From: Flectonema sp. DT1601
Taxonomy: Eukaryota
DNA: 64,000 nt
Reading direction: 5' to 3'
Assembly: GCA_964019425.1 (NCBI GenBank)
Contig: OZ025793.1
Coordinates: 992,001 to 1,056,000 of the forward strand
Positions within the stretch are counted from its first letter, which is position 1. Each line of letters opens with the position of its first letter. Both the position numbers and the translations under genes were made by a program. Shown in pieces: positions 14,663-58,889 of this stretch. The notes below the pieces were generated by a model. The model was not told the DNA's origin. It did no database searches and worked only from the letters and a program-made list of their open reading frames with translations.

Positions 14663-16860
14663 ATGGTTTTTACTGTTCTAGTTGCTGCGGATGTATACGG
14701 AACGAAGGGAAACTTTGAAGTTACTTTCCCAAGTACTCCAACACTAGCTGAGTTGACCAGACAGACTGAAAGCATTTACGGAGTTGAAGCATCAGCAAGA
14801 AGACCAGTTGGTACCATCGCTGCTCCATTTTTGGTTTCGAGATTTCAACTTTACAACGATAAGCTACAGCAATGGGTAGACTTGTCTGCTCCAACTCAGT
14901 TGATGGACAGAGCGCAGGTATTCGCATTCCAGACTGCTGCCACTCCTGCACCAGCTCCAGCTCCAATTGGCGCAGCTTCGGTTGCAAGTGCTCTCGCAAA
15001 CGAAAACGTAGCTGTTGCTAATTTGGCTGCTGCAACATCAGCGCAGGTTCATGCTCAAGCAACCGCAAACGCAACCGCAGTTGCCACCACCCAACTTGCT
15101 GCTCATCAGCAGATCATTGCCGCGCACAACATCGCAAGTCAGGCAGCTGCTGTGCAGGCTGCTAACCACGCTGTTGCACAAGTAGCACAGCAGGGTGCCC
15201 AAATGCCAGTCTTCTCTGAGACCGCAACTCATGAAGACAAGACCAGAGCCGTCTTTGAGGGGTTTGACACAAACGCAAACCGCGTTCTTGAAGCCGAGGA
15301 GTGTCGCCAGGCATTTGAACTTCTTCACATCGACTTCTCTGGTGCCACTGTCAGTGATTTGATTCAAAAAGCAGATGCTGACAAGGATGGAGTTATTTCA
15401 TTTCCGGAATGGCAATCATTTTCCGAGAGATTCCCAACACTCATTGACTCCTTCTACTTCCGTTTGAAGGCCTACTGGGAGGATGTTCGTCGTCAGCAGG
15501 AAATCAGAAGTGCAAAGGAGCTTCTCGCCGAACTCAAGGAGCGCTCCCAGCAAGCGCAGGTTGCATGGCTCGAGGCCCAACGTGACTCTGATGCTGCTCG
15601 TACCAGACTCTCTGCTCAGGAAGCCGCTCTCGCTCAAGCAATTGACGTTCAGAGATCTGCTGAACAGGTTTGTTTATTCTAATTAGTAATTTCACACATC
15701 TTGCAGCTTTTACTATTTCAACAATCCTAAACAGGCACTTTTAGAGGGACGTCGTGACGTCGAGCGTGCTACTGCTGATAGAGCTGCTAGAGAACAGGAG
15801 CTTCTTTCTCAGAGAGACAGAGAAACTCAGGCTGGACAGCTACACGCTGATTCCGCCAGAGACACTGAGGCAGCCCACTTCAGATTGACTCAGGCGCAGG
15901 CTGCTGTTGCCGAAGCGCAAGAAAGAGAAAGACAGGCAGCTCAAGTACTTGCCGAAGCCCAGGCCGAAGTTGAGAGACAGAGACAATTGACATCGATGAG
16001 AAGTGCCGAAGTTACAGAGGCGAGATCAAGAGAACAGGCAGCAGCTTTGGCAGCGACTGAAGCCGTGAGAGATGCCACCCTTGCCGGAGAGCGTCTCTCC
16101 CGCGCGGATCTCGACGTTGCTGCTAAGCAGCAGCGTGAAAAGGAGTTAGAGGCCTCCCACGCTCAGGCCCAGTTCGAGACCCACCGCGGTACTGTTCGTC
16201 GTGACGAGGAAGCCCAGGCTCTACAGGTACAGCGTCAGCAGGAAGAAGCAGCACACGTTGCTCGTTTGGAAGCGCAGAGAATTACGGAAGAGGCTGACAG
16301 GAAGGTTGTCGCTCTTGAGGCTGAAAACACCGCATTCACTCAGAAGAGAAGAACTGTTGAAGAACAGGAAGCACCACTTCTCGATCAGGAGATTAGATTG
16401 AGGAGCCAGCGTGATGCACTTGAGGAGAAGGAAGCCCGTCTAAGAGGAGACCACAAGGACTTCTGTGACGCCACCCGTTCTGGATCACCAGTTGCTTCGC
16501 CACTTGCTGTTGCTGCGGCTGTTGCTGCGGGTTCCCCTATCAGACGGGATTACAGCTTAGCAGCTGCCGCTGCTGCTCACGCAAATGCATCCCTCCCTGC
16601 TGTTGCTGCGTCTATTCCAACTCAAGCTCCTGTTCCACTGACTGCGGCTGCTCCAGCATTCGCTTCAGGTTACGCTACAACACCTGCCCTGGTCACTCCA
16701 CGTACTGAGTATGCTCCTCTGCCAACCTCAAGGTTTGTAAATATAATTAACATTTGACAAGCAACTCAAACAACTTAAAAATCAACAAAACAGATCCGTC
16801 TACAGTGGTGTAGGTACTGAGTTGGGAGACACTCCACTTAAGCCTGGTAGACTAGCGTAG
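14663..16860 (+). CDS. BILBO1-family protein: ubiquitin-like N-terminal domain, two EF-hands, long coiled coil (~689 aa, 3 exons)
   Basis: N-terminus MVFTVLVAADVYGTKGNFEVTFPSTPTLAEL matches the BILBO1 NTD. EF-hands DTNANRVLEAEE and DADKDGVISFPEW, followed by FPTLIDSFYFR. Introns 15668-15734 and 16733-16793 are in frame. Confidence 0.85.
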
Positions 16861-18174: not shown

Positions 18175-20673
18175 ATGAATATCCCTCTGTTGGTAGTGTT
18201 ACCAGATGACAGTACTGTGGCTATTGCTGTTTGTGTTACTGACAGTGAGAAGGAAGTTATGGAAAAAGTTATTATCGAATCTGATACAACATTTGATACA
18301 TCAGTATGCGAGCTTCGTTATTTAGGAGAACTCATCGAACCTAACGTCACGCTATTGGAGTTGGGAATCTCTGCTGGAGAGGAACTCGAACTCCAACTAA
18401 CCGCAAAGGGGATTGCTCTGAAACAGCTTCAAAATAATAAAAAATGTTTCACGTGCCATTCTTTTCATAAAGAGATTGAATATTTTGGTGATGATGTAGT
18501 CACATACATTCAAGCTGGCGTTGATGTTAATGAAACAAACGAAGACGGAGAAACTTCATTTCACGTTGCTGCTGGAAATAGTAATATTCACGCACTAAAA
18601 CTCATTTACCCTCATGTAGATAATGCGAACACTATTGACAAGGATTATCAGAATGCCTTGCATCTCGCCACCTCTTGTCAAGCATCTGTAGAAACGCTCA
18701 CATACCTAATCGAGGAATGTAATATTGACATTAACGCTTTGGATCGTTGGGGTGATTCTCCAATGTGGTCAGCTTGTTCATTTCCAAGCAGACCGGAATC
18801 TTGCAAATTATTAATAAGACATGGAGTCGAACTTAACAGGAAAAACACCGACAAACAGCAACAAACTCCTCTCACAGCAGCCGTTGCTGGTGGCTGTATG
18901 GAAACCGTGAAACTTATTTTGGAAAACGGTGGAAGAATTCGTATGTATAATTAACATTATTAAAAAAAAAAATTCCCCTTTACGTACATTAACATAAAAC
19001 AAAACAAAAAAACAGAAGAAGGCAATGCTAAGTGGCCCAATGACATAATTGAAGCAATGACAGAGGGAGTCTCTTCCGAAATGTTCTCCCTGTTGTTAGA
19101 TTATTCTGATAATGTTGATGTCAACTTACCATCTAATTGCCGTGCGTCAAAATTCTTTAATGGTGGTTTGAGTTATTATGAACAAATAGTTCAAAGAGGG
19201 TTCAAATTATATCAAACAACCCTCAGTCAAATGTTAAAATGTGCCACTGGCGTTGGAGTTTTCAACTTCTTACTGGATCACTGCAGCCATGAAGAAAAGT
19301 TAAAACTCGATTTTTCAAAAGCGTTCATCTCAGCAACCCGTTCTAGCAGGATTGATGTTTGTACAGTTTTACTACGTCGGGCACGTGAATATCTTGAAAG
19401 CGGTTTAATAGAAAGTCGTTTGAGAAAAGTTTCTAACGTTCCGATGTTCAAGTATCTCTTAAACGAAGTCATAGCGGAAGAAAATCGGATTACTGGAACG
19501 CACAACACACATCTATCTGCATTGAGCTCACTGCAGAATGATAATAAAAGTACGACACACCTCACAGTGTTGTCAACCATAAATACTAAATCAATAGAAC
19601 AACTTGCAAGGGAAAGGTGTAAAGAATTCCCATACTTAAAATTACTTAGTGAGATTGATGATGAAATTAAAAAAAAAAAAATTGGTTTACTTCGAATATT
19701 AGCTGAATGCGAGAGGTCTAAAACATACGTCTCAATGCTTAGTGATACTGCTGAAAGTAGAAATAATGTGACTTTATTAAGAGATAGTAGCTTAACAAAT
19801 ACAGATCTGATTGGTGTCTTGTATGATAATCAGCTACGTTCCTCGTGTGAGTATATTATAAAAACAAGCTTGTTGGATAGTTGGCAATTTGAAGAACATT
19901 TCATCCCGTCAAAGGAGGACGTCCCTATTTCGTATATAAATATACTGAATAATGTGTATGTTGGGATTAAGCCACGACCCTATTCACATCAATTATTTTT
20001 AAACTATCTCTTGGAAGACGCAATCGTTGGGTTGGATATTTCTCTTATTATGATGCTACACTCACGGGGTGCGGTAACAAGTCATCGAGCACTTCGATTA
20101 GCGTGTAAGACTTCTGATGCAGTTGTTTTTGAACTTATTATGAATCTCACACACTTCCAAGAGATTCAAATAAATGAAATTATCGACGGAATGCACATCC
20201 TCGAAGCATGTATGATTTGTGATGTTTTTTCAGGTTTTATAGCATTGCTTGACATACCAGAAATACTAATAGAGCCTTCCTTACTACTAAAAGCGGTACA
20301 GCAAGGACGAGACTCTTACGTTGCCGTATTACTACGGAAGGGAGTCAGTGCGAAGCTACCAATAATTGGTTGGTTACCGCCGTTAATAATATCGTCGTTG
20401 TCGTTACACGCTAACGTGAGTAGGATTTTAATTGAGAATGGAGGGCTTTCTGTTGACGATCGTTTGTTCTGTCCTGGTAATGTATTCCACAATTACACTG
20501 CAGTGGAAGTTGGTTTTCATGTCGCAAAGCAGTTGCGGCGCAGTCGTGATCGTGCTGATCGCGCAAAATGCTCTGCAGCAATACGAGCTCTCAATGTACT
20601 GTGTTCACACAGTGCTGATCCACAACTGATTCTACGGAAGCTAACTACCCAGAAGTTGCGTGGCCGTTGGTAG
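18175..20673 (+). CDS. Ubiquitin-like domain + ankyrin-repeat protein (~807 aa, 2 exons)
   Basis: N-terminal UBL-like region (ELRYLGELIEPNVTLLELGISAGEELEL). Ankyrin motifs GETSFHVAA, QNALHLAT, GDSPMWSAC and QTPLTAAV. Intron 18941-19015 joins to the 19057 ORF in frame. Confidence 0.85.
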
Positions 20674-20954
20674 CTGTTATGATTTTTTTTTATTATTTTC
20701 TTGTTCTTGAAGTGCATTTTAAACACACACGTCCGTTGGCAACCTTATAGTACACTATTCGCAAGGCTCGCAAAACGACCATGCACATCTTAGTTTTTAT
20801 TTGACAACATGTCTTCGATACGATAAAATTGAGTTTTTTTTTTTTTTTTTTGCACCTAAACTAACCCCTGTTGCTAAAACTAAAGCGAGCGTTATATTGT
20901 GTCTTCATGTTCTCGTTCATTTACAGCAAGGAGGGGGGAACTTGGAAAAAAAAA

Positions 20955-22852
20955 ATGCAAAAAAGTAAAGAAAAATCCACCTTCTCAGAAGATATCACAA
21001 GAGACGAAATAAAAAGATTAAAAATCGAACAACCTGCAAAACAAAAAATAATATCATCGATCATAAACAAAATAAAATCAAAAGATGGCAGCATCCTACA
21101 AGACGATGAAGGAGGTTATTTCTGGACATCACACGTATTAAAAGACATTAACCTTTCAGAGTTACTTTCCGAAATAAAACCATACTGGTGTGATATGATA
21201 CCCCTACTAAGACACCATCCAATACTGACTGTTATTAATAAGTTCATCGCATCAGTGGATATTAAGGAAGCTAAAAAGGGTAATTGGGTTAAAAAAGAAA
21301 AGCAAAACAACGATGCAATCCAAAAAAGAGACAGTAAAATAGCTCAATCACTGGAAGCGATTATTCAAGAGACTCGGGATATGCTGAGGGATAGGAAAGG
21401 AAATATAGTGATTCCTATATATCCAGATTATTGTATTGTCGCTTTCAGTGGATTTATAGAAACGATTTCTGGACTTTTACGAAATGACTCTCTTGTTGAT
21501 ATATCGTCTCGTTACCAGGTTTGTCATAATTTTTTTTCCTCTTTTTTTTTTTTTTTCAAAAAAATTCAAAAAAAAAAAAAAAACACAGCTATATCACAAC
21601 GTCTTTGAATTAGTGAAAATCTTCTCTTCCAGCAACGACTTTGCTGCGTTATTCTGCACTGAAAGCGAAGACAATGGTAAGCCAATTGCCTCTCTTCTAG
21701 CTACAATGAATGAACAGGCTAATGTCTTTTTACATAAGAAAGATGTAGTTGAGGAACACGCAGGGGATGAAGATATGATTATAACAATTGACATAGCAAT
21801 GAGTATTAGGGATACCATTGAGAAGATAGCGAGGGACAATGAACAGATGAAGGAACGAATTGAAAATTTAGAGGAAAAATATATCGCGAGATTGACACCG
21901 AACAGACTGAAAATAGTAACAATATTCAACAGCAACACCAACAGATTCAATCATGTTTTTGACAGGCAACTTAAATCTGTTAGAGGTACTGTTAGTTCTG
22001 CTGTTGGACGAATGAGAGAACTGTCTACATTAACGACAACACTTCCAGTGAGTTGGGGGTCAGGGATATTCATCAGAGTTGATGAAAACAGAAACGACTG
22101 TCTCAAAGCTCTGATAATCGGACCTCAAGGAACACCTTACCAAGATGGTTGTTTTATATTTGATATTTTCCTACCACAAAATTATCCTCAAGTACCACCA
22201 ATGGTTGAACTTGTTACCACTAGTAAAGGAAATATTCGTTTTAATCCTAATCTCTATGCCTGTGGTAAGGTCTGCTTGAGTCTTCTTGGAACCTGGTCAG
22301 GACCTGGTTGGATACCTGGAAAGTCAACTCTGCTTCAGGTTTTGATATCTATACAGGTATGTTGTTTTTATTTGTGTTGTTTTTATTATTTTATTATCAT
22401 TATCAATACCGCAGGGGCTTATCTTCGTCAAAGATCCCATAAATAACGAACCCGGTGAAGACGGGTCCGAATCGAGAATTCAAAAATACAATAACTACAT
22501 TAGATACTACACATGCAAAGTATGTTTTTTGATCTTTTTTTTCTTCTAATTTTTTGTTTATTTTCCATCTCGTGGACTGTTGTAGACGAGACCATACACC
22601 CTTCCACAGGGAGCTGTGCTTGAGATTCTGAACTCTATAAATCCATACTTTGAAACTGTAATCAGAGATCATTTTAAGTTAAAGAAGGATACAATAAGAA
22701 AGAAGCTTACTGAACTTGTTGAGGTTGTGAGTCAGTTGAAAAGCACTCCGCCGGGGAACTTTGGATTCCGAAGTGGCAGCTATGGAGCTGGCGACTCAAC
22801 TAACCCAAAAGAAATAGTTAAACGAGCCTTAGCAAAACTTGAAGCATTGTGA
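20955..22852 (+). CDS. BIRC6/UBE2Z-type ubiquitin-conjugating enzyme E2 (~559 aa, 4 exons)
   Basis: Catalytic segment RFNPNLYACGKVCLSLLGTWSG, plus GPQGTPYQDGCFIFD and the BIRC6-like pre-UBC motif LLRNDSLVDIS..QLY. Introns 21519-21588, 22357-22414 and 22520-22609. Confidence 0.9.
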
Positions 22853-23640: not shown

Positions 23641-24207
23641 TTTTTTTTTTTTTTTTTTTTTTTGAACCTGTTGGTCTCTCCGGGTAATGTGGGTTAAAGG
23701 GATAGATCTTTCAAACCAAAAGCTATATAAAAACACAATGTCCGTGATTGAGTCTTTTACTTGCGGGTTACCCGCAGTCATCAGTTCGACTTGGTAACTA
23801 CTAAAAAAATTCAATTCGGTACCTTTTTTTAATATCCTAATTTAGTGCACAAACTCATATTCTAACTTCGTTTTTTTCTATTGTTCTTTCTTCAGCAGAT
23901 GTTTCGTGGCATTTTTTTTTTAAAAATTCCGCGGCTCCCTACCGACAACCCTTCGACAATACTGATATGGTATTGTATAGGGAAGTACAACATAGGACGC
24001 GCGAAAAAGTTGAAAAAAAAACCGTTGTGAGCTCTGACTGAATTTAGAAATAAACAGAGCGATGTTTATTATTTTCCCTATTCTTGCTTCTTACCTTCGT
24101 TCGAACGATAATTGTAATTATTTGTTTAAACATTATTGTTGTTATTTTGACTGACACGTGGAATGCTTATTATTTATTATTTCATTAAAGGAGTGGGTTT
24201 GTTCAAC

Positions 24208-27200
24208 ATGTCTAGAACTTACCCACAAAGGTGTACCCTGGACAAAGTTGTCGGGTTTTGGGATGGAGAGACAATCGGAGAAGCAGTCGGAGGGACGGAT
24301 GTCACTGTCCTCGGAGTTGAGACTTACTATCGAGTTGTGTACAAAGGAAAAACTGGTTTGATCCGGAAGAGTGATATAGCGGCAGGAGTCATCCAGCGAA
24401 AATCAACTCTCTCACTAGGCGATGAAGAATCGAAATTCTTGTACAATGAGAAGAGACAAGTCGAAGAAAAATTAGGAAATAAGTCTCTGCCATCACTACT
24501 ACCACCTGAATCTAGTAGAGTGTCGTACGACGAGGGTGAAAAGGAATTATTTAATAATGATCTGATCCTTATTGAGGAAAGTGTTAATTCTGGATTCCCA
24601 ATACCAGGAACTCTTGAATTAGGTCAATTGTCTTTGTTGTTAACGGGAGCAATCGTTAGACCAAATGGAATTAAAATGGCGATTGAGATTATAAAATGGG
24701 CCCTCCCACGACCAGAACTTGCCCGTCAACTTCCACCACTGCTATCTGATCTTCCAACTGAAGTAAGAGATTCTTTTAGAGATGAGGCTTCGTATTTACT
24801 AGCGAAGTCATATGACGAACAGAATGGGAACTGTGAAACATACATCTCACTTTTTAGAGCTGCGATAGGTCTCCCTCCAGGAATGACGGATAGCGACACT
24901 GATATCAATCTCAATAAGGAATCAAAATATCGACCTTACGGACATGTTGACTCTCTAAACGCTGACTTCCATCCGGATCCTGTCCTTGAAGAGGAAGTCG
25001 ACTACGTTAGAGGAGTCTTACGATCTGAGGATGTTATGGACAAGCTTCAGGTGAAGGATTACTTCAGCGACAGGTTGGCACAGAAATTAGCATCTCAGGC
25101 TGCAAGTGGTCGATTTGTATTCACAGAAAGCACTCGAAGAAATGTATCCATCCTCTGCAGGGCACTTCAATCCCCAATACCTCTTCTTATCGAAGGTGAT
25201 ACTGGAACGGGAAAAACAGTTTCAGTTTCTGTGGCGGCCGCCATGTTGGGAAAGACGCATTTACGATTTAATCTTTCATCTGGTACGACAGTCGAAGACT
25301 TGGTAGGACGCATGCAATTGAGCAACAAGAAACTTGAATTATCAATGCAGCCATTCACTGAAGCATATTCAAAAGGAATAATACTCGTACTCGATGAGTG
25401 TAATTTAGCACAAGAAGAAGTGTTAGCGACTCTCGAGTCAGCTTTAGATACGGGAATTCTAGTCATTCCTAACCCATCAAATCCAGCACGTGCTTCTAGA
25501 GAGGTTAAGAGACACCCAGCGTTTAGATTAATTATAACACAGAACCCATGTACAGGATTGTACAGAGGGAAGAGACACACGTTGTCAGCTGCATTCTTAT
25601 CTAGATTTTATCCCGTGTCGTTGAGTGACATCCCATCGTCTGAATTGGCTGAAATTGCAACCATCCAACTCGCGTCTAGACTCAAGTTGAAAGCAGCTAA
25701 GGATGATCCGGGGAATTCGTTCTGTCATCCAACAGGTTCAACCATTGTAAAGATACACGATGCAGTAAAGACATACGCGGCTACCCTCCGATCTGTAAAC
25801 TCTCTTAACATCTTATCAATTAGAGATGTCATAAACTTTGTTAGACTAGTAGCTGAAGAACCGAGTGATAACACTCCTGAAGTGATCCTCCAATCTGTAA
25901 AACAACGATTTCCAGAAGCAGCTTGGTGTCTATACCGAGCAAGGTTTCAACGAGAGGCAAGAGATGGAGTTTGGGAAGTAATCAAAGAAGCTGTTAAAGA
26001 CTTCATCCCAGATCTTCCGAGTGATCCGACGGTTAATGGAGTTGAGACTTTTCATATCGAAGAAGGTTCAAATGGTGAATCGATTCGTATGAAACTTGAA
26101 CTACCAAAAGTTGGTAAAAGAATTACCTGCATTGATGACAGGATAGCATTCCCACAACACCCAATTGTTGTTACTGAAAGGATTCTTAATCTCTGGAAAC
26201 AACTTGACTTTGTCATGGAGTTACGTAGACCCGTCTTGGTAGTTGGCTCTCCTGGATCTGGAACATCATCAGCCGTGTTGGGATACGCTGCGTACCGAAA
26301 ATCGAAATTCAGTCTTTGCCATGTCACGAGTGAGACATCAGCAGCAACTCTAGTTGGTCAGAACATGCCTTGTATCAATGGTAGTGAAGATAAAGTTATC
26401 GAATGGATTGATGGACCAGCAACATCTTCTATCGATAATGGTGAGTGGTTAATACTTAACGATCTACCTGCTGCTACAGCAACTGTTCTCGAGAGATTAA
26501 ACTCTCTGTTGGAAGAGGAACCAGAGTTGTACGTTGCTGAACGTGGAGCTGGTAAAGACAAAAAGATAGTTGGCAGCTCCTCTTTTAGAGTCCTTGCTAC
26601 TGCCGACACTACTCAGATTGCTTCTCTTTCTCCGGCTTTTGCGAATAGATTCACAATTCTTGTTTTCGAAGATCCAGACGATGATGTGAAACCGGAAATT
26701 AGTTGTTTGTTGAGAAGTTTGTTGTTCGCTGCGCCAGACTTGGTGTGGCTTCGGAGAGACGAGTCTTGTGTGGAAACCTTTCGAAATCAAATAAAACATT
26801 TCGGTAGCGAAGATTGTTACTCAAATGCGATAGCAGATCGTGAGATAATAGGAAACCAAACATTTATAATTCAGTGCTGGGGAGTAAACGGTGCGTGTGT
26901 TGGTGTTGCTATTGATGAGGATGACTTCTCACTGACACATGAACCACACAAGGCAAAGACTCGAATTTGGGGATACAGCAATCATGGTGAAATATTTTGC
27001 ACTGAACCCGACAAACCCCGCTCTGGAACAGAATGTAAGAAGTATGTAGACGGCGACACCATTTCAATAGTAGTTGACTGCGCTAAGGAGAGCATCACAT
27101 TCTCACTCAATGAGGAGGTTCAAAAGTGCATTCCGTTGACAAACGCGATCAATCAGAAAAAACCCCTGAGACCATTCATTGGACTGTTCACTAAAGGATC

Positions 27201-30200
27201 AACAGCAACGATAAGACTTTCTGGAAGTAAACAACCAACTGATGAAGAGGTTACTCAGGTTACAACTATGGCACTTCCGTTTTATCGAAACAGCGGACAG
27301 TCTGGTTTAGCCACAGTTGTGAGAGCATCACAGGTTGCTCGTAAGCTTGCAGATGACCAAGCTGTGATGTGTGAAAAGCATCACTTATTAAAAGCTTTTA
27401 ATATAACTCAGTTAGGAGGTCATAAGGGATCTTCTTGGTTTTCAAGAAGGGGCAGTGCGCAGCAAGTCTTGATGAGTTTCAGTCAGATTAGAGGAGGTCC
27501 AGCTCTGCGTGCAACGCTCGAACGGAAATCACAAGACATGCCACCTTCACTAGTTGGGATGACTCAAAGAGTCGTGTGGGGAATCTCTGTTGAAGTTCCT
27601 TTAGTCATTGTTGACGACTTTAGTTGGGATTATAGAACATGGATGCCTTCGAATTGTGAACATATCGTCGCGACACCAAATAGTTCGTTGTCGGAGTGGT
27701 TTGGGTCTCTGCTTCCAACAACAAGTCAATCAGGAGGAGTTCAGATAAAGGTAAACCCTGGACCTTTAAAAAGAGCTCTTGTTAATGGTAAAGTACTTCT
27801 ACTTGAGGGTCTTGGAGTTCTTCCAGCTTCAGTTCAATCTCAATTAGTACCTCTTCTTGAAACAGGAATGTTATGCAGACCTGGTGAAGGGGATGCGATA
27901 AGAGCTCAGCCCGGATTTTCTTTTACTGGGATCTGTACATCGAAGGAAGTTGAACGCTTGCCTAAGAAATTCCAGAGCAAACTAACAAAAATACATCTCC
28001 CTCGACCCAAAGCAGATGACTATAAATATTTAGTTGGTGACATCCCTGAGCCTTCTGCGACTATAATCGCAAAGGCTGCTGCTGCGATTGGAAGTGAAGG
28101 AATCAAAACATTTCAGATGAGTGTCAGAGTCTTTAAAAGAGTAATCCATCGAATGTCAGTTCTCAAGATAGCTGATGACACTAAAGTATCACCCCACCTA
28201 CTATGGGCATATTGTTACACATCTTACGTGTTATCTCCTTGTCAATTGCAAGAAGAAATTTGCATCCAACTGGCCAACTTCTTTCAATCTCACAAAGTAA
28301 TTGAGTCCAACGACTATTGGAATTTTGTTAAGTCATTGCGGCAACCTGCTTCCATCATGACTGACCAGAGCGATAATAACAAAGTTTTATTTACTTGTTG
28401 GAACCTTAAAGTAAGTGTGAAGGGATCCTTATCGAATTGTAATGTGAATATTTCACTTCAAAAATTAATAGATATAATCGTTTGCATTGCTCATGATGCT
28501 GCAAGTGGAGAAGCAACACTTCTGGTGGGTCCAACGTCTTGTAAGACATTAGCACTTCAAGTCTATTCATCAATCGTATCAAGTCAGATGGATGTTATTC
28601 ACTTGACTTGTTCTACTGATGAATCTGACCTCCTCGGTTCTGTCTCTCCGTACTGTCCTTCAGAGTACGCAAATGAGTTAAAAATGGAAATTGAAATGCT
28701 TCAAAATCGTCGAAAGAACGAACCCTCCTTACCAGACAACAGTTTCGAGTCTTGGGAAAACTCAATTAAATCTATGGAGGGAAACTTATCTGCCACAAAG
28801 GGAGATGAGGGAAGCACAATATTCGCTTTTAAGGAAGGACCTATGGCACTTGCAGTTAAGAAAGGTCTTGGTATGTTGTTAAAGGCAGCAAACTTACCAA
28901 ATGAATCAATATATGTGTCTCTTGCAGAGCTATTTGTTTCCAGAGAGCTTGGGTTTGGTGCTGCTGTGCAAACTGTTGTGCCGTTAGTGGAATCAGTTCC
29001 ATTGGTGCTCACAATTACTTCAGAAATTAGTCACAGTAGACCACCTACTCTGGATACACTTTGTGTTCATAGGCTATGCCCTGCTTACAGTACTTCTGAG
29101 ATTGGGATTATTCTGTCTGAAGCTGTGTCTGGTAAGCAGCCTGATGATGAATCAGAACTGCTGTCATCGACACTTCAGAACACTTGTTTTAGAATGTCAT
29201 TATCATTGAGATCAATGCTCAGATGGGCTCATTTTATTTTTGAGTATTCGAAGGTTGCAAACCTAACCAGACCGCAAGCATTTCTTCTTGGAGCTAAGCT
29301 TCTCCTCCAAGTTGCTGTACCAGATGATGAGAGTCTTCATAAAGAAGGATGGAGTTCTGATGATATTAAGAACGCCAAGTCAGTAATTCCTAATCAAATT
29401 CGTTCTAAAGGACTTCCTATCGAAAAGCTCGTCGATTTGAAAGAAGGGAATATTGCTTTACTGAAAGACGGTGAAGGCTCTTCCCTCGCAGTAGCTCGTT
29501 GCTATAAAGGAAAGGAATTAGAAAGTCGTCTTAAGATTTCTAAAATGGTTCCAACGGAATCACTTCTTCGTAACTTGTGCTGCGTATTCGCTGCCAGCAC
29601 ACTTCGAATTCCACTTCTACTTGAAGGGGCACCTGGGATAGGTAAAAGTTTTATAGTCCAATCAGCAGCTGAGTTGCTGTCGTGTAATTTTGAGAGAATT
29701 CAATTCTCAGCAGGCACTACCATAGCTCACTTGTTTGGAGTACCAATGCCAATTATGAAAAATGGAATCCGCAAGTTTGAGTCAAAACTCGGAGCCTTGG
29801 GAGCAGCTTTACGAAAAGGTGAAAACGAAAAGTTAGAAAGTTGGATTCTATTCGATGAACTCAATCTCGCACCTCCTGAAGTACAACAAGCATTATCACC
29901 AATGTTAACAGAAGGATCGACTACCTTAACAATTGGTAATGATATTTATGACTTGAGAAATGTTCGCTGCTTTGCTGCTGTCAATCCAGCAAAGGTCGGT
30001 GGAGGACGTTCTCACCTTCCACCGTCGGTCAGAGATTTATTCACCACAGTTGTACTGAAGGAACTTACAAGTGAAGAAGCCATCGAGATTATTGAACATA
30101 AATTAGTAGCTGACCTTGAATTAGGTTCTTTTGACACACTCCGTAATGAACTTCTTCAGGGAATCTCAACAGTTCATTATGGTGTTGCAGAAGCTCTTCG

Positions 30201-33200
30201 GAGTGGTGGTATTGGTGGTGACGGCAACACCCGCATCGTGAATCTCCGAACACTAGAAAAGGTAGTTCTGCTTCTCTCATCTAGGTTAGGGAAACATGCA
30301 TCCAAGTCACTCAAAGTCACTCCTGAAGGGAAGAAGATCGGTCATGTTAAACAATTCTTCATTCAGATAATGGATGCTGTCTACAAGTGGAGGTTTAGAG
30401 AAGCAGCTGATCGATCAAAGGTCGAAGAGATGATTGTATCATTAGCGAAGAGTATTCATGCTGTTTATTTACCATCACCTCATATTGCTGCTATGGGTTA
30501 TGGATCTGTTATTATGTTTGGTAGAGTTGGTATGATGAGAGGATACGCAGCCTCTAGTAGTAAACCACTTCCTCCTTCACCTGAATTACAATATCGAATA
30601 TCTGCCTTGGCTGCTGCATCTGTTTCTTCTCTCGCTGTCCTGCTTGAGGGTCCTACTGCTTCAGGTAAGACAGCTCTTGTGAGAGAACTCGCTCGAATCT
30701 GTGGACAAAAGCTGCAGATTATTCCTGTAACCCCAAATACTGAAATAGGAGAACTACTCGGAATGTGGGTTCCCTGGAAGGGTCTCGACACTGGCTCTGA
30801 CAGCATCGAAGCTCATTATCAACTCGGGCAGGAAGTTGCTCGTCTCGCAGCATTATTCATAACCAGCTCTTGTCACTCTTCCAGTGAGGAAGTAAAGGAG
30901 GTTCGAATAGAGCTGACAAAGCACCTCGAAATCCTCACTGATTTCAAGAAACGGGGAGTCGGGTTTGAAATCCTGAGGAAAAGTTCGTTGTTGCTTTGCA
31001 CACGGATGTCACAATTAGAGGAGAAAAGCGTCGCCGTTAAGGCGGAAAAACTAAAAGAGCTGCAAGGAGAGGTCGGGGATATGGGGTTCCACTTCGCTGA
31101 GTCACAACTAATTCATGCCATGCATGAAGGTGATTGGGTACTACTCGATAATATTGACTGGGCATCTCCTGCTGCTGTTGAGAGACTTAATTCCCTTCTT
31201 GAAGCTGACGCAACGTTCAAACTTACTGAACGTGGTGAAGGAGAACCTTTGCTTTTAAAGGGACGAGGCATTCATGAAAATTTCAGAATATTCTTCACGG
31301 CAAACCCAACTAGAAAACACGCCAGTACGTTGTCTACAGCTTTTTATAATCGAGTGATAACACTATCAATGAATCCCCTTGGACAAGAGTCAGAAGACGG
31401 TGGCTTCAAGAGAGTTGGAGCAGGGAGAGGTGACACTAGTATTCCAAGTATCATGTACCAAACCTTTAATCCACTTTGCGTAGATATAAGGTTTTGGCAA
31501 TATGTTGCCTCAGGATTTCACAACAGAGCCAGAGGTATAGAACCGAAAATATCGGTAAGAACATTACAGCAGTGTCTTGAAAAATGGAAAGTTGAAATTT
31601 CAACATCGGTAGAGCAATCTTCACTACAGCTGCTGTGCAGCATTCTGCTAAAGACGTATGTGAAGTCACTTCCTGTAGCAACTAGAGAGACTTTGATTAA
31701 GGCTATGAGACAAGTTCTGACTGAAGCTCAAGTGTTGTATTGGAATAAAAGGAAACGTGATTCCAGTCATCGCATTAAACCACCAAAACCTGAAGAGAAA
31801 CCTGAAGAAGCAGAACCAGAACAATCGTTTAGTTATAATGAAGATTCTATATTTCTTCCTGAAAAGGAAGAAGATTACGACAGCTCTACCGATGGCGGAG
31901 AAGGTGGTATCGTCGAAATCGATCGTGGGATGCCACAGCAATCTGAAGAACACATTGCAATCGCTGAAGATGTTGTGAAAATTCAAGAAGCATGCATCTC
32001 TCACTTAAAGTGTGAAACGTCTCGTCTGGAAACTTTATCTACAGAGGAATACGTTACTTTAGATGACAAAGAGGACCTCATAGACATCGCTCAAGATCTT
32101 GAAAGAATGTGGAAAGAAAAGCAATACGGCATTGTCGAAGAGCTCAGAGAGAACCTATCATTCCCAAGTCACATAAAAGACCCTTACACAGTATTGGATA
32201 CTCTTGCGAAGGCTCAGGAAGAAGCTCATGGAAAACACTTTCCAAGTCTTACCGCTATTCATTTGGTTGTACTTAGATTATACACCATGGAGTGGGCAGA
32301 TATTGATCAGCTTCTTGGTTATGAGAATGTCACTCCTTGGAGAGCAAATCTTTCAGAAGAAGATCAAGCAAAATGGTTACAATACAAAAAAGATTACCAC
32401 GGTACTCGCAATGTTAATATATATTCTAATATTAATACTGCTTTGAGAAACGCTCAGTCAAAAGATGAAAAGGAAAGATTTGATGCGAAGATGATGATGC
32501 AGAAATGGGTTAAATTCATCTGCATGATGATGACAATGTGCGAACCTATTGCGTCACCTGTACTGTTCAGAATGGTTAAGAGTCTACCAGCTACTGTTGT
32601 AAAGAATTTATCTGAACTACAAGTAGATGATATTCAAGCGTGGTCAGCTGCCTCTAGTACATCGATGATGGAAGGGTTCGCATTCCTAGGTAGCGATATC
32701 AATACAAATGCAACCTTTATCCTGAGAGGAGTGTCAAGAGGATTACGCGCTGATAGAATCTCACCATTCCCTGAAGAAGAAGAAGTCCTCGTTCCTCCAT
32801 TCGCAGTCTTTAAAGTGGTCAAGAAACCAGTTCATGGTCCCAAAGGATTAGTTGTAGAAATGCAGCTGGCAGAGTTACTTTGGTGGGATGACCCAACACT
32901 CAGATCTTTTGTTGAAAGAGTTCTTCATGATGGCCGTGATGGTGTTCGGAGACTGAACGCGAGAGTGAATAAGAAGTTTGGAGTAAGTGGTGATGTTCTG
33001 ACTCGACTAAGTCCTGAGTTGGTACTTCCAACAACTTGGTTTGAAGATTTACAGCGAGACTGTCAGATTCCTGAAAGTGATACCCCACCAGCAGCAACAG
33101 TCGAGTACTTATCAGATGGTGCTCTTGTTGAATGTTTGTCTGGTTTAATGAGTTCAGCTTCTTCTTCAGTTGGCAGCTACTACTCTAATCGAAAAGTCAA

Positions 33201-36200
33201 CAAACGAGCGTACACCGAACTCCCGATCTCTGCCCGCGAACTCTTCTCAAAGTGTCAGGATAATCTAACAGAGGCATTACGTAGCATGATGCAAAATAAT
33301 ATATTCACCAGATACCAGGCTGCTAGTTCTGGTGTAGAGCTTCACATCCCTGGTCTCATCAAAGCGATAACTACAAACTTCTCATACAATAAAGTCTTCG
33401 CTTCTCGAACTGCAGGCGGAACACGTTCATACAGTTGTATTATAGCAGTAGATGCAGCGACTGTTGGGGACCAAAAGATGGCATTTCGGTACTTGGAACT
33501 GTTTGCTGCATTACGAAATTCATTATCAGCCATTGAAGTAGAACCAGCTGTTGTTGTATTCAGTACAAGTAGTACTTGTTGTATTCATTTAGGTGAGTCA
33601 CCTTGGGATGACACTGCTACTTATGCATTCCTTAGTAGTTTATATAATTTGAATACCAGTCCTTCAGATGAGGATATGAATCCAATTCAACAATTATTAT
33701 CACTTGTTGTGGATATGAAAGGTAAGAAGAAATCATTATTTGTTATTACTTCTGGATTTGGTATTTCTTGGAGAAACCCTGAGATTGCTGGATCTCTCCG
33801 ACTAGCTGAGATGAACACAGTTGACGTGATTGGTGTTGGTATTGAAAGTGATATTCATTTTGCTCTCCCTCATGCTGTCTCTACTTCAAAACCATCAGAC
33901 CTAGCACGTGGACTTGAATTACTTATGCATGGTCCTTGGAAGGCTCCTCAAAGTGACATTGGTCGTGTTGAAGTTAGTGAGAAAGAAAATATTTGGGGAC
34001 GTTGGCACACTGGCTACACAATTGTTGGACATGATGTAGACTTCAACAGGGAAGATGATTCTTCAGGAGATTGCTTTATGATATTTTCAAAAGATGCAAT
34101 TACCAACGGAACTGAACAACACTTCACTATCACTACACCCTCCGACTACTATGTAGGTGTTGGTAGTATGGGTGTTCGTGTTGTCGATAACTTAGAAGGC
34201 AATCCATCAGCAGCTGTTAAGAAGTTCACATCCAGCGGATCTGTTTCTATAAAAGTAGATTTCAGTGATGGTAATCGACGTCTAGTCATCTCATCAGAAG
34301 TTATTGAAATACCTGTTAACCTAACTGAACCTTATTTAATGATTGGACTCACTGCATTCACTGGTAAGATTTCTATCACTAAGGCTGGACAAGAGAATGA
34401 GTCAGGAGAAGACATTCAGATTTCAAGTACTAAGAGTATCAGTTGGGATAGTAATAATCACTTTGATGTAGTTTCTGAAACAGTTGGTTCTTTTGATAAA
34501 TTTCTCAAAGATGACAACGAGAAACAATTGACATTATCATTTATATTGTCTGAGGATTGCACTCAGGCAATCTTTCGAATCTCTGGAGACAAAACTCTGT
34601 CAGTTGATGTTAGTGTTGGAAACGATAGAAGCAGTGCCGAATCTTCAATAATCGGAATTCATAAAACAGACTACGATGTTTGGATAGCCGACTACACGGA
34701 ACCAGTCTTAGATCGATTACGAATATCAACAAGTTCAGCAGCTGAAAGCCGCAGGAATGGCACACGCGCCACTCTAACTTTATCAAAAATTCGTTTGTCA
34801 CCTGATGGTGATGTGTCACCTGATGGTGATGTGTCACCTGGGCTTATAGAAGTTGAACTCATGAACGCTTCCAATGCCTTTAACTCCTCTTCAGGGTATC
34901 ACTTTTACAGTGACCAGAATAGTGTTGTAGAACAGAGGAAGAGCGGTAAATCCCAATGGAAACTTAAATACGATCCTTTCAGTGACTGTAGTTTGTCAAC
35001 AATATTCACGTTCACGATATCCGATGGAGACATTGAGAAGAAGATAATCCAGTTCACTTTATCTAATCGTGAGGAGGTCGTCTATAAAGCGGACGATAAG
35101 AAACTAGATGGTTCGAATATTACTATTCGTTGGGACTGTACAGGCACTCAACAAATACTTCAATTTATATTCGACGGAGCTATGTTTGAGTTCGAAGGTG
35201 ACAATCTGAAAATATGTCTTTCATCAGTTCCACTTGATAAGACAAAGGAAGAAGATTCTCTGTTTATTAGGAAAGTAAAATGGAAAGGTACTGAAAAGAA
35301 GGGATGGTCTAAAGTAGGTAGGGGATTATCTGTGGTAAACAGTACCGCAATTACCACTACAAAAAACAACTACTCAGCTGCACTTGGTCAGCCTATGTCA
35401 CCTGGATCAGGAATTCACGAGTGGAATGTACAGCTGTCGGGTAGCTGCAACGGAACATGTGTTGGGATTGCTACTGCGGAAGTCGATTTAGATTCACCTC
35501 TTTATAGAAAACAAACTACTTGGGTTTATAGTAATCATGGAAAAACTTCACACGGCGCTGACAGTGGAAGCAATAAGAATTATGCTAAAGAGTGTACGAT
35601 CACTTGTAGACTTGATATGACTGAAGGTTCTTTAACATTTCTTTTGGATGGAGTTGGTCAACCAAAAGCCTTTTATCAAATATCTGAAACAGTATTTCCT
35701 ATCATTGGATTGTATACGAAGGGATCTAATGCAAAGATAACGACTGTATCAGAAGGTGAAAAGACTGAGAAGACTATAAAATGGTCCGCGCCTGATGGCT
35801 CGCTAGTTGAACTCCTCGACGTATCTCCAGGTACAGTCTGTCAAAGCGATTTAAATTTGAGTCAAGACGCTTTTGTTTTATTTGTGAATTTCATAGGATC
35901 ACACACGATAACATTTTCAGACTGTCGTAAAGAATTTACAGAAACCGGAAAACACTATTCTCATAAAATAGTTTGCGATCCCTTGTATGTGTTTTTTTTT
36001 TTTTTTGTCTCTTTCGTTTTTATTGGGTTCTTTTTTTTATCTACCTTTCGTTTTTGTGGGACAATTGAAAATATAATTTAAATAAAAAAAAACCAAAAAA
36101 AAACAGAAAAAGTGTCTTTCTTATTAACGACAACATGACTAAGTTGCCGCCATGCACCACACTCGGATTTGAGTTTGTCGACGCTGGTTCATGTGAGGTT

Positions 36201-36701
36201 ACTCACGTAGAGAAGACGATTGGATTTTCTCACGTAGAATGGGTTAATAAGCTAAATCAACCAGCTCTCAGTCTTGATCCTTCCGTTGTTGAAGATGACT
36301 GGTTGTTTGGATACTCACAAGTGACTACAAAAGATTTTTCATTTCAGGTAAACTTTACTGGATTGACAAACGGTTGCTTAGTTGGATTTTGGAAGGGAAC
36401 CCCCGTAGAAGACATTGAAACAATACTATCTTCTGATACAAGTGTTTCTTATAGTAGTCATGGAATTCTTCGTAACCGAGGTGTGGAACCCAAAAGAGTT
36501 ACTCGATTTCCGAATGACGGTTGTCTAGTGACCATCAATGGAACTACTCAATCAGAAGGTAAAGTAATGATTGAATTCGTTATTAGTTCCGAAACTGGAA
36601 TTTCTCAAACAGTAAAGTGTTCCACTTCAATGGATGGCGACGACTATCTTATTGTTATGGCAAGAGAGCCTTCAACTTCATTTATGGTTCTAAACACTTG
36701 A
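24208..36701 (+). CDS. Giant midasin-like AAA+ ATPase with SPRY, ADP-ribosyltransferase and VWA domains (~4,123 aa, 2 exons)
   Basis: Walker A motifs GDTGTGKT (25195), GSPGSGTS (26245), GPTSCKT (28528), GAPGIGKS (29626) and GPTASGKT (30649), with dynein-related AAA_5 motifs such as LDECNLA and VLERLNSLLE. SPRY insert at ~26740-27220, ART R-S-E motifs at ~32560-32800, VWA at ~33420-33900, C-terminal SPRY-like repeats. Intron 35985-36106 joins to the 36135 ORF in frame. Confidence 0.9.
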
Positions 36702-49010: not shown

Positions 49011-52000
49011 ATGTCTGCAACTGACTTCACAGCAACCATGGCGGAGATTCCGTCACACGGAGCTAGGTTGGGAGCTGCAGCGAAGATGGGTCTCGAAGGT
49101 TGCGTATTAACAGGCGTGGAGAATGAGGGTGCATTCACATCTACGTACGCAATTGTATGTCTAATGGCACGTAAGGACTCTGAAGGATTAGAAGCGGTTG
49201 TTCGAAAACATCGCTCCTGGGTTATCCAAGCGAGAGCTGTTCAATGCCTTTCAAAAATCGATCAAGCAAAAACAGCAAAACTTCTTATGGATCCTGACAT
49301 TCCAATTCAGATGCGCAGCGTTATTTTGAAATCTTTACGAGTCGGTAATGATGACGTCCTAAACTGTGTTCTGTCTAACAAGTCTTGGGGAGGTCTGAAG
49401 GCTGCCATTGAACTTATGCGACGATTCCCACGAGGTGATGTCTACGAGGAATTAATGAAAAAGTGGCTTCCAAAACTTGGAAGCATGAACCAACTTCTCG
49501 GAATTGAAATCGAGAAAAAATACGACGAAGAGTATCTGTACCAATCTGCAGCAGCAAAGTACCCGCAATTAATGCTAACTATGTTGAAGAATGAGAAAGG
49601 TGACATCAACTTTAGATGGTACCGTGCAAGTAAAGTTTTATCAAAGGAACACCCTGACGAAATGGTCAGCATTCTAAAAGAGAAATCATGGAATCCACGT
49701 GCTATTTGGTTTATTGCTCGTCCGCTTATCAAACACAGCCCTGATGCAGTTATAAATATTTTTAAAGAACGAAAGATTATCGATGATGGATTGTTTTGGT
49801 GTTTGAGAACAGTCTTTGACAACACCAACCATCGTCGAGAAATTCTAAACATTGTTTTAGATAATATCAAATTCGTACCTGCAGAGACCGGTGACAGAAT
49901 AATCAATCTCCTAACTGGTAAGTCAAAGAGAATGTACTCTCTCGATAACGAACTAACTGAACTGACCATTGCTAAACGCAATGCCGACTGGATCAGATTA
50001 CTCTCTGATCTCAGTGACAGCACTCCATACAAATTCACAACAGAGATATTCATCAGATGCTTACGAAAACATGTTATGGCAAAGCGTGAAACTTCAATCG
50101 GGAAGTTGTTGCGCAAATTAAATATTACAGAAACAGAGAGCAACTCCATATGGACAAACATTTATGAAGATGACGATACGACTGAAAAGCTCAGTGAGAT
50201 GATCAGAAAAAAGGGTCTCAATGAGGATGGATTGAGCTCTGATTTCTTTAAGTCGATACCGAAAACAGTTACTGATGAAGTGTTGCTCAGTTATTCAACG
50301 ACAGAAGAGTTTCTTGAGATGGAAATTAAAAATCGTTGCAATCTGTTGTCACAACTTCCCTACAAAATAGCTGCGAAAACATTTAAAGTTATTTCAAACG
50401 ATGCAACTCCTGAAAACAGAGTTATAGGGTTGAAGGCCATTTGGTCTGGTGTTACCAAACAAAAAGACGTCGACATTGAAGAGATAAGAGAAGTATTAAC
50501 TTATATTTATGACAGAATAAAAAGGGATCACGAAGAGATTACATCTCCCGTTATAAAAAAGATTCTACTCTCAACTCCTCATGAAATACTTTCACAACTG
50601 GTTGATGGGGATAAGCTACTCAACCTGTTCACTGTAAGTGTGGGGTTAGCACTTCCATTGGAAGACGGATGGACTGAATGGTGTGCAGCTGTTTGCGTTA
50701 GGGCTCCAGTTGTTTTTGAAGGAAACGACGTTGAAATTGAATATAATAGTTTCTTTCGATTAATCTTAAAAAGGATAAACACGGAGTTCCGTACTCTCGG
50801 CTCCACATGGCCTAAAAGTCTCATCACTGCACTGAAAGACTACCGAACAAAGTCTAAAAAAGGAGATTTCCAGCCTCACGATGCTGATCAACTTGCAACA
50901 GTAGTCAAAGAGATTGTAGACGCTTGTGATAGCGCGGGTATGTTTGGAGAATACACAAAGAGGACTAAAACTGAAGAAGGTAACACACGTATTCCATCGA
51001 CGCTTTCTGATGCCGGGTACACATCCGATGCTATGACGAAATCTGAGATACTGGAATGTTGGAACCATGTTCAAACGTTGAAGATTTTAAGATTTTACGG
51101 AGCAGACCTACTGATGATTTCCCCTCATGCCAAACAACATGCGACTACTTTTTTAAAGAAATTGGTATTCAAAAAGACGTCACCAGTCGCAGCAGCTCTT
51201 GTATTGAACATCGCTGAACTACCTGAAAAACGTTTACTGGCATGGCCTCAGTTTGCAGTGTTCGTAAAGAAGGCTCTCACAAGTCTACTGGATGTGTCTC
51301 AAGAGAGTTCTGTTGGATACCGATCAGTAGATGGAAGGCTTCTGGTTTCATCAATTATTAATAAACTTATTAAAGATCTTCCTATGGCTTCGAGAACTCA
51401 TTCTATGGTTTTGTTTAAAAATAACGTAAGCTCTGAACTTGCTTCTGAAATATCCAAATGGGCGATGCCTTACGAGTCACTTTGGGAGTTAAGTTGTGAC
51501 ATTTTATCGGGTTGTTGTGTCTCGTGGAAAGATGGAATCCCGTCATCATTTATTAAAGACAATCATTCAAAGGAAGGTGGGCGTGTTATGCTAAACGAAC
51601 ATGACAGAAGTCTCTTAGGTAACATTTACAGAAAAATCTGCCCTTCGACAAGGACACTGAGGGAAACAATATCTTGGAGGTCAGACAATGTTAGAGGACT
51701 CACTGCTGGGGCTATTGCTGCAAGTGCTAATTCCCAAGACATAGTTTCATTGTTGCGGCAGTTTTCGCGTCCTAAAAGTGCCGCCGAGGAATACGCACTC
51801 AATGAAGTGGTTAACGTGTTTTGCAGAAGTGAAGTTACACAAAGAGACACTCAGTCACTCGTTCACACATTACGCAACTTATTTGGGGTGGATGAGACTT
51901 TTGAGTGTCGCTCTGTAGGACGCGCGAAGAGAAACCGGTTCACACGGACACCTGCATCAAAGGCTCGGATTGTTCGCAAATCTGAGAAAAGATCAAAAAC

Positions 52001-58500: not shown

Positions 58501-58889
58501 AGGGAAAAATAGTAGTCTCTCAAATCCAAGAAGCTGTTGAGTCTTTTGAAGAAATATTAAATAAAAGACTCGACGCAAGACGGTTGGCGATATCCTTCGT
58601 CGATGGAGCTCAAGAAAAACTTTCTGAACGAAAGAAACGCGATCGAGAAAAGCAAAAAATCACCAGATGCATAACAGATCCTCCAGCAACACCATTCTCT
58701 GTCGTAATAACAATCTCACCTTCGGGTGACATACAACAACTTCCTGTGATATCAGACGCAACTATTGATATCGCAGACTCTATTGACCAACTTGAACAGC
58801 AAATGAAAGATGTACCCGCAGCCATAGCCGAAGACATCGCTCAACTTCAAAAACAGCTCCCTGCTCCTGCTGATGATCCGCTTTTGTAG
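55506..58889 (+). CDS. Multidomain protein with coiled coil and four SH3b-like repeats (1127 aa)
   Basis: Four repeats of the pattern GA..R....S..V....V.V.E...R..I..P..GWIS; N-terminal EFYRWYSPDKL motif; acidic linker. Confidence 0.8.
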   Translation: MKSYPALEKSLREFYRWYSPDKLGEWEWVTTMITEWEDEDSMWEALARKYGPWPCNQQHYPERTIERSVSPYHRDNKIVPLGREHNIVLRTTRLLETDRISPVYSSPEIQKCLQFNSEGTYQPTKYTSVANAESVVELTQLEDFLLFGHQQSIDDDINKHSQFSGIQPFDSLSPSRVEGPPLDKVMVHAIKERDIEVERLKKLIIQRERELLQFREASDRQRQIIEKAKEELQQVKDFKPRLPSELLVTSVLVNGCDGENITQHLNTTTEQPSEGDEQKEESGATYFTLIDLPFRGKKRHDLPAGVLAALVSSVVVCVFPTVERPEPVTQPGFALVVSATGALAREGEDLKSPEVTRFPHNTVVHVDEVRDRRGLISFPQTGWISLVSGAGKVLVVPNPPPKVTHGTILATRGAVVKQKLDPKSAEVGRVDRHATIDIIEIEGKRAQIIAPLKGWISLKNSAGQDLVEIVDDSMQVANRPGPAKVVVEVSVKLDKPKETKKKKNDKRRKKASPEVIILAVGDTVQVEEITDSKVRISAPHAGWCPLKVSGRNAFSQEKEAEEVPEQESDNNDDEEDFLESSDENEEETVVPSSSPVFDSEYKVEATEGGVDIIQIKYCLDATLWTGIDQGKIMLADEFHPKIFDRAFVLPISYESRHENSKNHFSITPSHPTNLYLLWPGGQRRPGWLGVKFTKLQRYEVRCTPTEDCEDPFHYFDVFKHDGPLKKNFVFPATGVNKNSPGSQLPFAVVVAQHIERPPNNKRVLKKSWPTLGKKVAVTSRNWHTGQIIGRVTSQKDLQFGRWKVAMDRNLFENPRPIHFYSTSEMRDFAGQIKELDPISVKSTPSWEGLEGIKLKTDLASSNKSSLVNIFFGIKQGLNKKIIGWGQVAIAPIDLVQGPTTKTVNLTGVPEDKTHAPRPLSVKEAMIKSAKPPPPVLVKEAGPAVIVNKSGAYARKTAKTSSDVIEILKYNTKVNITKIVGRRAEIDNPVEGWISTSDSKGKIVVSQIQEAVESFEEILNKRLDARRLAISFVDGAQEKLSERKKRDREKQKITRCITDPPATPFSVVITISPSGDIQQLPVISDATIDIADSIDQLEQQMKDVPAAIAEDIAQLQKQLPAPADDPLL

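Follow-up and report, generated by a model that had tools for sequence, protein, structure and literature searches.

Can an ATPase ring of the midasin (Rea1/MDN1) type be put to work on something other than ribosome assembly? The question is raised by a gene at positions 24208-36701 of a 64,000-nucleotide stretch of Flectonema sp. DT1601 (contig OZ025793.1, positions 992,001 to 1,056,000, forward strand; hereafter the window), whose predicted product joins six AAA modules to an ADP-ribosyltransferase (ART) domain and a VWA domain. With a little more than even confidence, we propose that this protein is an ATP-switched, targeted arginine mono-ADP-ribosyltransferase, possibly acting in defence against intracellular microbes. 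The ADP-ribosyltransferase chemistry and the switch logic are, judging from the sequence, probably right; given these, a role in defence or surveillance is close to an even question.

An earlier note, made from the letters alone, had claimed a single polypeptide of about 4,123 amino acids (aa) for this locus, and the gene model bears it out. An open reading frame (ORF) at 24163-36081 stays open for 3,972 aa and is followed by a second at 36135-36701; a GT-AG intron at 35985-36106 fuses both in frame, giving 4,138 aa from the ATG at 24163 or 4,123 aa from the ATG at 24208, with which the start of the Flectonema neradi homolog P0001 lines up. The exact exon junction is a predicted one, the pair retained being one of six in-frame GT-AG candidates and picked on its GTATGT donor and CAG acceptor. 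P0001 is a complete-ORF F. neradi transcript of 4,121 aa with an identical domain layout, and is 62% identical to the window protein across 3,949 alignment columns; exon 2 aligns with its C-terminus (34% identity, E 9e-12), and the 32-aa read-through from exon 1 into the intron gave no match to P0001 or otherwise. One continuous polypeptide is thus supported by homology. Since a complete transcript of another species shows the same layout, misassembly is very unlikely and an assembly chimera was rejected. The window contains 30 stop-to-stop frames of at least 150 aa on the + strand and five on the - strand, a bias which, together with the GT-AG introns, is as in the unidirectional gene arrays described for diplonemids, marine flagellates in which transcription is largely polycistronic (PMC10161547). 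The window is eukaryotic and, the closest named relatives of the protein being without exception diplonemid, likely of diplonemid origin. The features of the gene are as follows.

24208-36701, + strand: whole gene, two exons (24208-35984 and 36107-36701), about 4,123 aa, by homology to the complete transcript P0001
24208-24387, + strand: SH3b-like N-terminal domain (ESM Atlas 0.95; counterpart in P0001 and P0007)
24403-25092, + strand: N-terminal domain conserved in the family, of no named type (matches P0001, P0005, P0006 and P0007)
25120-25659, + strand: AAA1, predicted active site; Walker A, Walker B (DE), sensor 1 and arginine finger intact
26194-26688, + strand: AAA2; Walker A/B degenerate, arginine finger retained, no helix-2 plug insertion
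26782-27216, + strand: SPRY1, between the AAA2 and AAA3 cores (Pfam E 1.8e-8)
27535-28032, + strand: AAA3, dead; no Walker A
28444-29112, + strand: AAA4, dead; GPTSCKT, no Walker B acids
29557-30093, + strand: AAA5, predicted active site; Walker A/B and sensor 1 intact, own arginine finger lost
30589-31392, + strand: AAA6, non-hydrolysing; Walker A intact, Walker B DN, arginine finger kept
31813-32112, + strand: short acidic stretch (28-30% D/E over 100 aa)
32248-32889, + strand: ART domain of the cholera-toxin-like fold class (Pfam ART 5.8e-7)
33289-33954, + strand: midasin-type VWA with degenerate MIDAS (DAATV, ITSG), from a fold match to Rea1
33988-35307, + strand: about three fast-evolving beta-rich segments (27-38% identity to P0001)
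35332-35742, + strand: SPRY2 (Pfam 4.8e-10; TRIM67 PRYSPRY fold match)
35985-36106, + strand: probable GT-AG intron (GTATGT...CAG, 22% GC, 48% T)
36107-36701, + strand: exon 2, with a degenerate SPRY-like domain (about 36321-36542)

The domain order, namely SH3b-like, AAA1, AAA2, SPRY, AAA3-6, short acidic patch, ART, VWA and a SPRY/beta tail, was confirmed as originally claimed by a combination of Pfam, a local AAA profile and fold searches. Pfam recognized AAA_5 in five stretches and two SPRY domains, and its ART match exceeded the curated cut-off; the local profile recovered all six AAA modules, and NCBIfam gave no match in any of six segments. The first 65 aa scored 0.95 against bacterial SH3 clusters of the ESM Atlas, with a low number of shared features (129-137 of 256), and Pfam found no match in this region at E 0.5; the SH3b character attributed to the N-terminus thus stands as a distant likeness only. 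SPRY1 is present in four of the seven family members covering its region. Among the several SPRY-like tail domains that had been proposed, SPRY2 is firm (TRIM67 PRYSPRY: Z 19.3, root-mean-square deviation (rmsd) 2.3, 150 positions aligned) and exon 2 is weakly SPRY-like (E 1.5e-5), with low recognition in the ESM Atlas and clusters without names, whereas the other beta-rich segments were modelled poorly: the C-terminal model was mostly of low confidence (mean pLDDT 45.9) and both fold searches returned SPRY2 alone.

The prediction of the chemistry comes from the ART domain, which carries the motif R2803, S2832 and E2872-x-E2874 (numbering from the ATG at 24163). R, S and ExE are in register and invariant in all eight aligned members, whose ART domains are 31-61% identical to that of the window protein. 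In an AlphaFold2 model of ART plus VWA based on eight sequences (mean pLDDT 76.7), the ART fold matched HopU1 (Z 14.2, rmsd 4.3, 202 aligned) and the toxin/immunity pair of PDB 6DRH (Z 14.0, rmsd 2.5, 179 aligned), with further matches to ExoS and ART2.2. PDB 6DRH corresponds to Tre1, and ExE is described as common among arginine-modifying ARTs (PMC8120803). Because ExE is kept in 8/8 members, arginine mono-ADP-ribosylation is predicted, and the conserved R-S-ExE makes an active arginine mono-ADP-ribosyltransferase likely. The claim that an ART sits where midasin has its linker is supported, its catalytic motifs being intact. The label 'toxin-type' holds for the fold alone. The family ART resembles the R-S-E mono-ARTs Tre1, HopU1, ExoS and ecto-ART2.2 in fold (Z 11-14) and in the R-S-ExE motif, but shares 15-18% identity with them and is embedded in a 4,000-aa eukaryotic protein, and its nearest relatives are not these proteins but a large euglenozoan ART subfamily with signalling and cytoskeletal partners. 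This R-S-ExE subfamily of diplonemids and Apiculatamorpha (P0152-P0291), in which Pfam often misses the ART, includes a myosin-head fusion (P0200) and a multi-PDZ fusion (P0219). Five of seven ART-only proteins looked up came from D. papillatum, D. japonicum, Artemidia, Namystynia and Apiculatamorpha. An ART-only homolog search (521-2,000 aa) returned one match, P0137, and a search of representatives many more.

The VWA, missed by Pfam, found its best fold match in the MIDAS domain of Rea1/MDN1 (Z 15.7, rmsd 3.1, 203 aligned). The MIDAS motif is incomplete in all eight members, the first D alone being invariant (8/8). Just before the first VWA strand (model 425-468) lies the most conserved stretch of the family, FTRYQA...IPGLIKA. 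Rea1 is described as having an essential MIDAS loop (PMC11603028), to which this stretch, by position and length, likely corresponds, and its conservation hints that the VWA still contacts the ring.

The switch logic is read from the AAA modules. Complete Walker motifs are restricted to AAA1 (6/7 members, the other having a G-for-D change in Walker A) and AAA5 (8/8), AAA2-4 being degenerate across the catalytic motifs and the Walker B of AAA6 reading DN. Arginine fingers are retained in AAA2 (7/7), AAA6 (8/8) and AAA1 (7/7) and are gone from AAA5 (8/8) and mostly from AAA3; that of AAA4 was not aligned in most rows. For RNF213, it is reported that the arginine finger of module n+1 completes site n, and its two active sites out of six have been interpreted as a switch (PMC7311170). 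The pattern found here, with AAA2 serving AAA1, AAA6 serving AAA5 and AAA1 serving the bind-only AAA6, fits such an in-ring donation, and the fingers lost, in AAA5 and mostly in AAA3, are those facing dead sites. This indicates, as far as motifs can predict, that the ring has been maintained, with ATP hydrolysed at two sites and with no lever. As AAA1 and AAA5 alone are complete and the MIDAS ligands are lost, the ring is better read as a switch than as the motor for ATP-driven remodelling, in the manner of midasin, that was suggested previously.

How far the protein has departed from midasin is best seen against the canonical form, described as having catalytic AAA2-5, a linker of about 1,700 aa, a D/E-rich region of about 600 aa and a Mg2+-binding terminal MIDAS (PMC11603028). 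Both line up six MoxR-clade AAA modules in one chain (best PDB matches at E 3e-83) and both have an acidic stretch; their VWAs belong to one structural subtype (Z 15.7). In contrast, AAA2-5 are catalytic in midasin (five canonical controls) and AAA1 and AAA5 in the family; the region from AAA6 to the VWA measures 571-826 aa in the family against 2,344-3,014 aa in midasin, holds zero to two acidic 50-aa blocks against nine to 15, and gave no significant match to any canonical midasin compared, which leaves no trace of an ordinary linker. Walker A and B of AAA2 lie 66-71 aa apart in 6/7 members (113 aa in P0003) compared with 155-198 aa in six canonical proteins, a short spacing from which the helix-2 plug is taken to be absent. 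The VWA is not terminal, being followed by 220-865 aa as opposed to about 30-40 in midasin, and the family has lost its MIDAS ligands and added ART, SPRY and SH3b-like domains that midasin lacks. It could still be argued that the protein is a mechanical remodeller pulling via its VWA, with the ART as an accessory marker or NADase. The Rea1/MDN1 MIDAS domain as best structural match, the intact AAA5, described as the main site in Rea1 (PMC11603028), and the conserved stretch at the presumed place of the MIDAS loop would suit this proposal, which the absence of the force-producing linker, a complete MIDAS in 0/8 members and three dead AAA modules out of six make rather improbable.

The possibility that the gene is simply the diverged MDN1 ortholog of the organism was addressed by two successive trees of AAA5-6. 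From 63 regions extracted, of which the incomplete P0035 was set aside, subsamples of 42 and later of 24 were used, with no diplonemid canonical MDN1 and no outgroup among them; the trees have long stems. The family formed one group (100/100) outside the canonical midasins (100/100), branching with non-canonical midasin-like proteins of rotifers, Tetradesmus and others (100/100), and the AU (approximately unbiased) test rejected its grouping with the midasin of the discoban Percolomonas (p 3e-81). Together with the loss of linker, plug and MIDAS, this supports the earlier suggestion that the protein is, by its sequence relationships, a midasin paralog separate from MDN1 in ancestry. In the supplement of PMC10161547, one 'Midasin' orthogroup occurs in all 30 taxa and contains one D. 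papillatum gene; this orthogroup would be MDN1, and the 'Midasin' label is attached to four further D. papillatum genes. DIPPA_26858 is absent from the supplement searched, and family members are not tied to its orthogroups. A further Midasin orthogroup listed there, OG0009141 (D. papillatum 2, Hpha 5, PhM-4 1, PhF-6 1), may be the AAA-ART-VWA family. NCBI labels the D. papillatum member P0003 'Midasin', which would suit orthology. MDN1 orthology was rejected on the separate clade in trees with non-diplonemid canonical midasins, the missing linker, plug and MIDAS, and the AAA1 plus AAA5 pattern, and orthology or a chimera, the latter opposed by the complete F. neradi transcript, is extremely improbable.

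The wider non-canonical clade (P0008-P0035, P0004 and P0160) includes proteins of bdelloid rotifers, Tetradesmus, Bryopsis and others, two of which, as tabulated, have AAA1, AAA3 and AAA5 intact and the even modules degenerate. The bdelloid rotifer and green-algal midasin-like proteins share with the family an intact AAA1, a GPTS[CS]KT-type AAA4 and the lost AAA5 arginine finger, changes which agree with the tree placement; unlike the family, two tabulated rotifer-type proteins retain an intact AAA3, and the family ART was found in 0/28 rotifer- or algal-type proteins scanned, several of them partial. The function of the rotifer midasin-like proteins is called unknown in PMC7943196.

Homolog searches with ART plus VWA (four matches) and with AAA5-6 (best 120 of 186) recovered at least seven relatives in which AAA, ART and VWA follow one another in this order. 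Overall, at least ten further AAA-ART-VWA proteins were found, at least 11 with the window protein, and all named ones are from diplonemids: P0001 and P0006 (F. neradi), P0011 (Diplonema ambulator) and P0003 (D. papillatum), with P0002, P0005 and P0007 as further members. The search of representatives (best 150 of 296) brought in P0150 (a partial protein of Lacrimia lanifica), P0149 (92% to P0002) and one fragment, whose cluster includes P0292, a second, partial D. papillatum paralog, so that F. neradi and D. papillatum have two paralogs each. Among these best 150, eight proteins carry AAA, ART and VWA, 73 ART alone, six AAA and VWA, and 63 VWA alone. The ARTs of ten family rows form one group against 29 others (SH-aLRT 87, unstarred), with subgroups matching those of the AAA tree, an agreement that points to a single fusion retained since, with no effector swapping. 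The exchange of effector domains between paralogs envisaged in the earlier note was accordingly rejected: the ART is kept in every one of the at least 11 members, and it is the tails that vary. SPRY/beta tails occur in the window protein, P0001, P0002 and P0150, the tail of P0007 has a SPRY plus weak WD40 matches, and those of P0005 and P0006 are beta-rich and unrelated. The tail of P0011 (about aa 2875-3035) resembles the dynein stalk/microtubule-binding domain (E 3.6e-4), dyneins making up most of its 24 matches; for the D. papillatum tail the likeness falls short of significance (E 0.065). Outside SPRY2, tail identity is 21-38% versus 61-85% in the core. A metagenome scan with the ART plus VWA alignment gave 71 pattern matches, none confirmed. 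In line with the earlier note, no description of the architecture was found in the literature searched, which covered few subscription papers, and AAA-ART-VWA proteins are apparently an undescribed small family of diplonemids.

A mechanism can be proposed from these elements. The six AAA modules would close into a ring in which AAA1 and AAA5 hydrolyse ATP, with AAA2 and AAA6 supplying the arginine fingers that complete these sites. The VWA would dock on the ring as in Rea1 and keep the adjoining ART near it, without Mg2+ ligand binding, while SPRY, SH3b-like and tail domains would bind a target or a location. Through target binding and the nucleotides held by the ring, the ART could then be released or positioned, and it would move one ADP-ribose from NAD+ onto an arginine of the target.

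Two known systems offer parallels for such gating. RNF213 (mysterin) is likewise a giant six-AAA ring with two complete sites and a modifying enzyme on its C-terminal side, and has an antibacterial role. The likeness is an analogy of logic, as RNF213 couples a dynein-like ring, in which AAA3 and AAA4 are the active modules, to an E3 ligase, where the protein described here couples a midasin-like ring, with AAA1 and AAA5, to an ART. The PDB sequence matches of the window protein included no RNF213 chain, and no RING/E3 Pfam match was found in this protein, the post-ring part consisting of ART and VWA, with some tail segments of no assigned fold. The comparison with RNF213, with ART in place of E3, that the earlier note had drawn is supported as an analogy by the two-site ring and the post-ring enzyme. 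The MoxR-vWA ternary conflict systems also use a MoxR-clade AAA and a vWA to gate an enzymatic effector; they differ in being prokaryotic and multi-gene, with a third component, as opposed to one eukaryotic chain, and in having the effector C-terminal to vWA or on vWA-L, whereas here the ART precedes the VWA (PMC8195603). Third-component domains (VMAP, iSTAND and others) were not found among the Pfam matches of the 19 other window ORFs.

What such an enzyme would be used for is the more delicate question. SPRY domains are described as sensors of invaders in TRIM proteins, and MoxR-vWA pairs as gating bacterial conflict effectors (PMC8195603, PMC7159879). A defence role is slightly favoured on account of these SPRY sensors and MoxR-vWA gating, of the RNF213 analogy and of the fast-changing tails. 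That diplonemids harbour bacterial endosymbionts also speaks for it. Several findings weigh against it. Copy number is low and the effector is never swapped, unlike in arms-race systems; 73 of the best 150 matches (of 296) carry the ART with neither AAA nor VWA, and R-S-ExE is found in 70 of the 81 ART-bearing proteins among these 150. Of the ART-only proteins, 40 of 73 were scanned, and 11 had partners, among them myosin head, PDZ, EF-hand, WD40, B-box, LRR, CAP and Sushi, which give the subfamily the look of ordinary signalling. P0011 has its dynein-like, microtubule-binding tail, and a 1,127-aa ORF elsewhere in the window (55506-58889) has a bacterial-type SH3_3 Pfam match (E 5e-5) with further SH3-like repeats by eye, so that an SH3b-like domain need not imply bacterial sensing.

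The same chemistry might then serve housekeeping, with an ATP-gated ART regulating cytoskeletal, flagellar or signalling proteins and reversible arginine ADP-ribosylation expanded in diplonemids. This would accord with the fusions of the ART subfamily to myosin head, PDZ, EF-hand and WD40, the P0011 tail and the stable, low-copy core, with the two DraG-type ADP-ribosyl glycohydrolase orthogroups among the diplonemid expansions (PMC10161547 supplement), which fit reversible signalling as well as self-protection, and with the frequent recruitment of toxin ARTs by eukaryotes as ordinary modifiers (PMC3417536). Set against this are tails that are highly variable between paralogs, SPRY and SH3b-like modules suggestive of varied ligands, and a microtubule-binding-like tail in one member only, and we regard housekeeping as less likely than not; defence stands only slightly ahead of a signalling or cytoskeletal role. 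Extending the defence reading to the clade as a whole, it can tentatively be speculated that diplonemids, bdelloid rotifers and green algae hold further giant AAA+ immune machines beside RNF213, in which the diplonemid ring would gate an ART and exchangeable SPRY, SH3b-like, WD40 or microtubule-binding tails would direct it towards bacteria inside the cell, towards viruses or towards structures that these exploit.

Other genes of the window include a ubiquitin-conjugating (E2) gene (20871-22852), which contains an intron, encodes a long N-terminal part and lies directly upstream, an ankyrin-repeat gene with a ubiquitin-like N-terminus by eye (18175-20673), an EF-hand gene with a weak match to the N-terminal domain of BILBO1 (E 9e-4; 14663-15682), as would suit a euglenozoan source, and a 1,760-aa single-exon ORF with no Pfam or NCBIfam match (49011-54293).

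If the proposal is correct, the family would unite in one chain an AAA+ ring and an ADP-ribosyltransferase under its direct control, a combination not found in print, and would show the midasin chassis in use beyond ribosome assembly. The comparison exposes a clade of eukaryotic midasin paralogs with a catalytic pattern of its own, hidden by 'Midasin' annotations, and a large expansion of R-S-ExE ARTs that diplonemids share with a free-living flagellate related to them. Two members occur in D. papillatum, a species open to genetic manipulation, so that the role can be put to a direct test in a group that is abundant in the sea and whose immunity has barely been studied.

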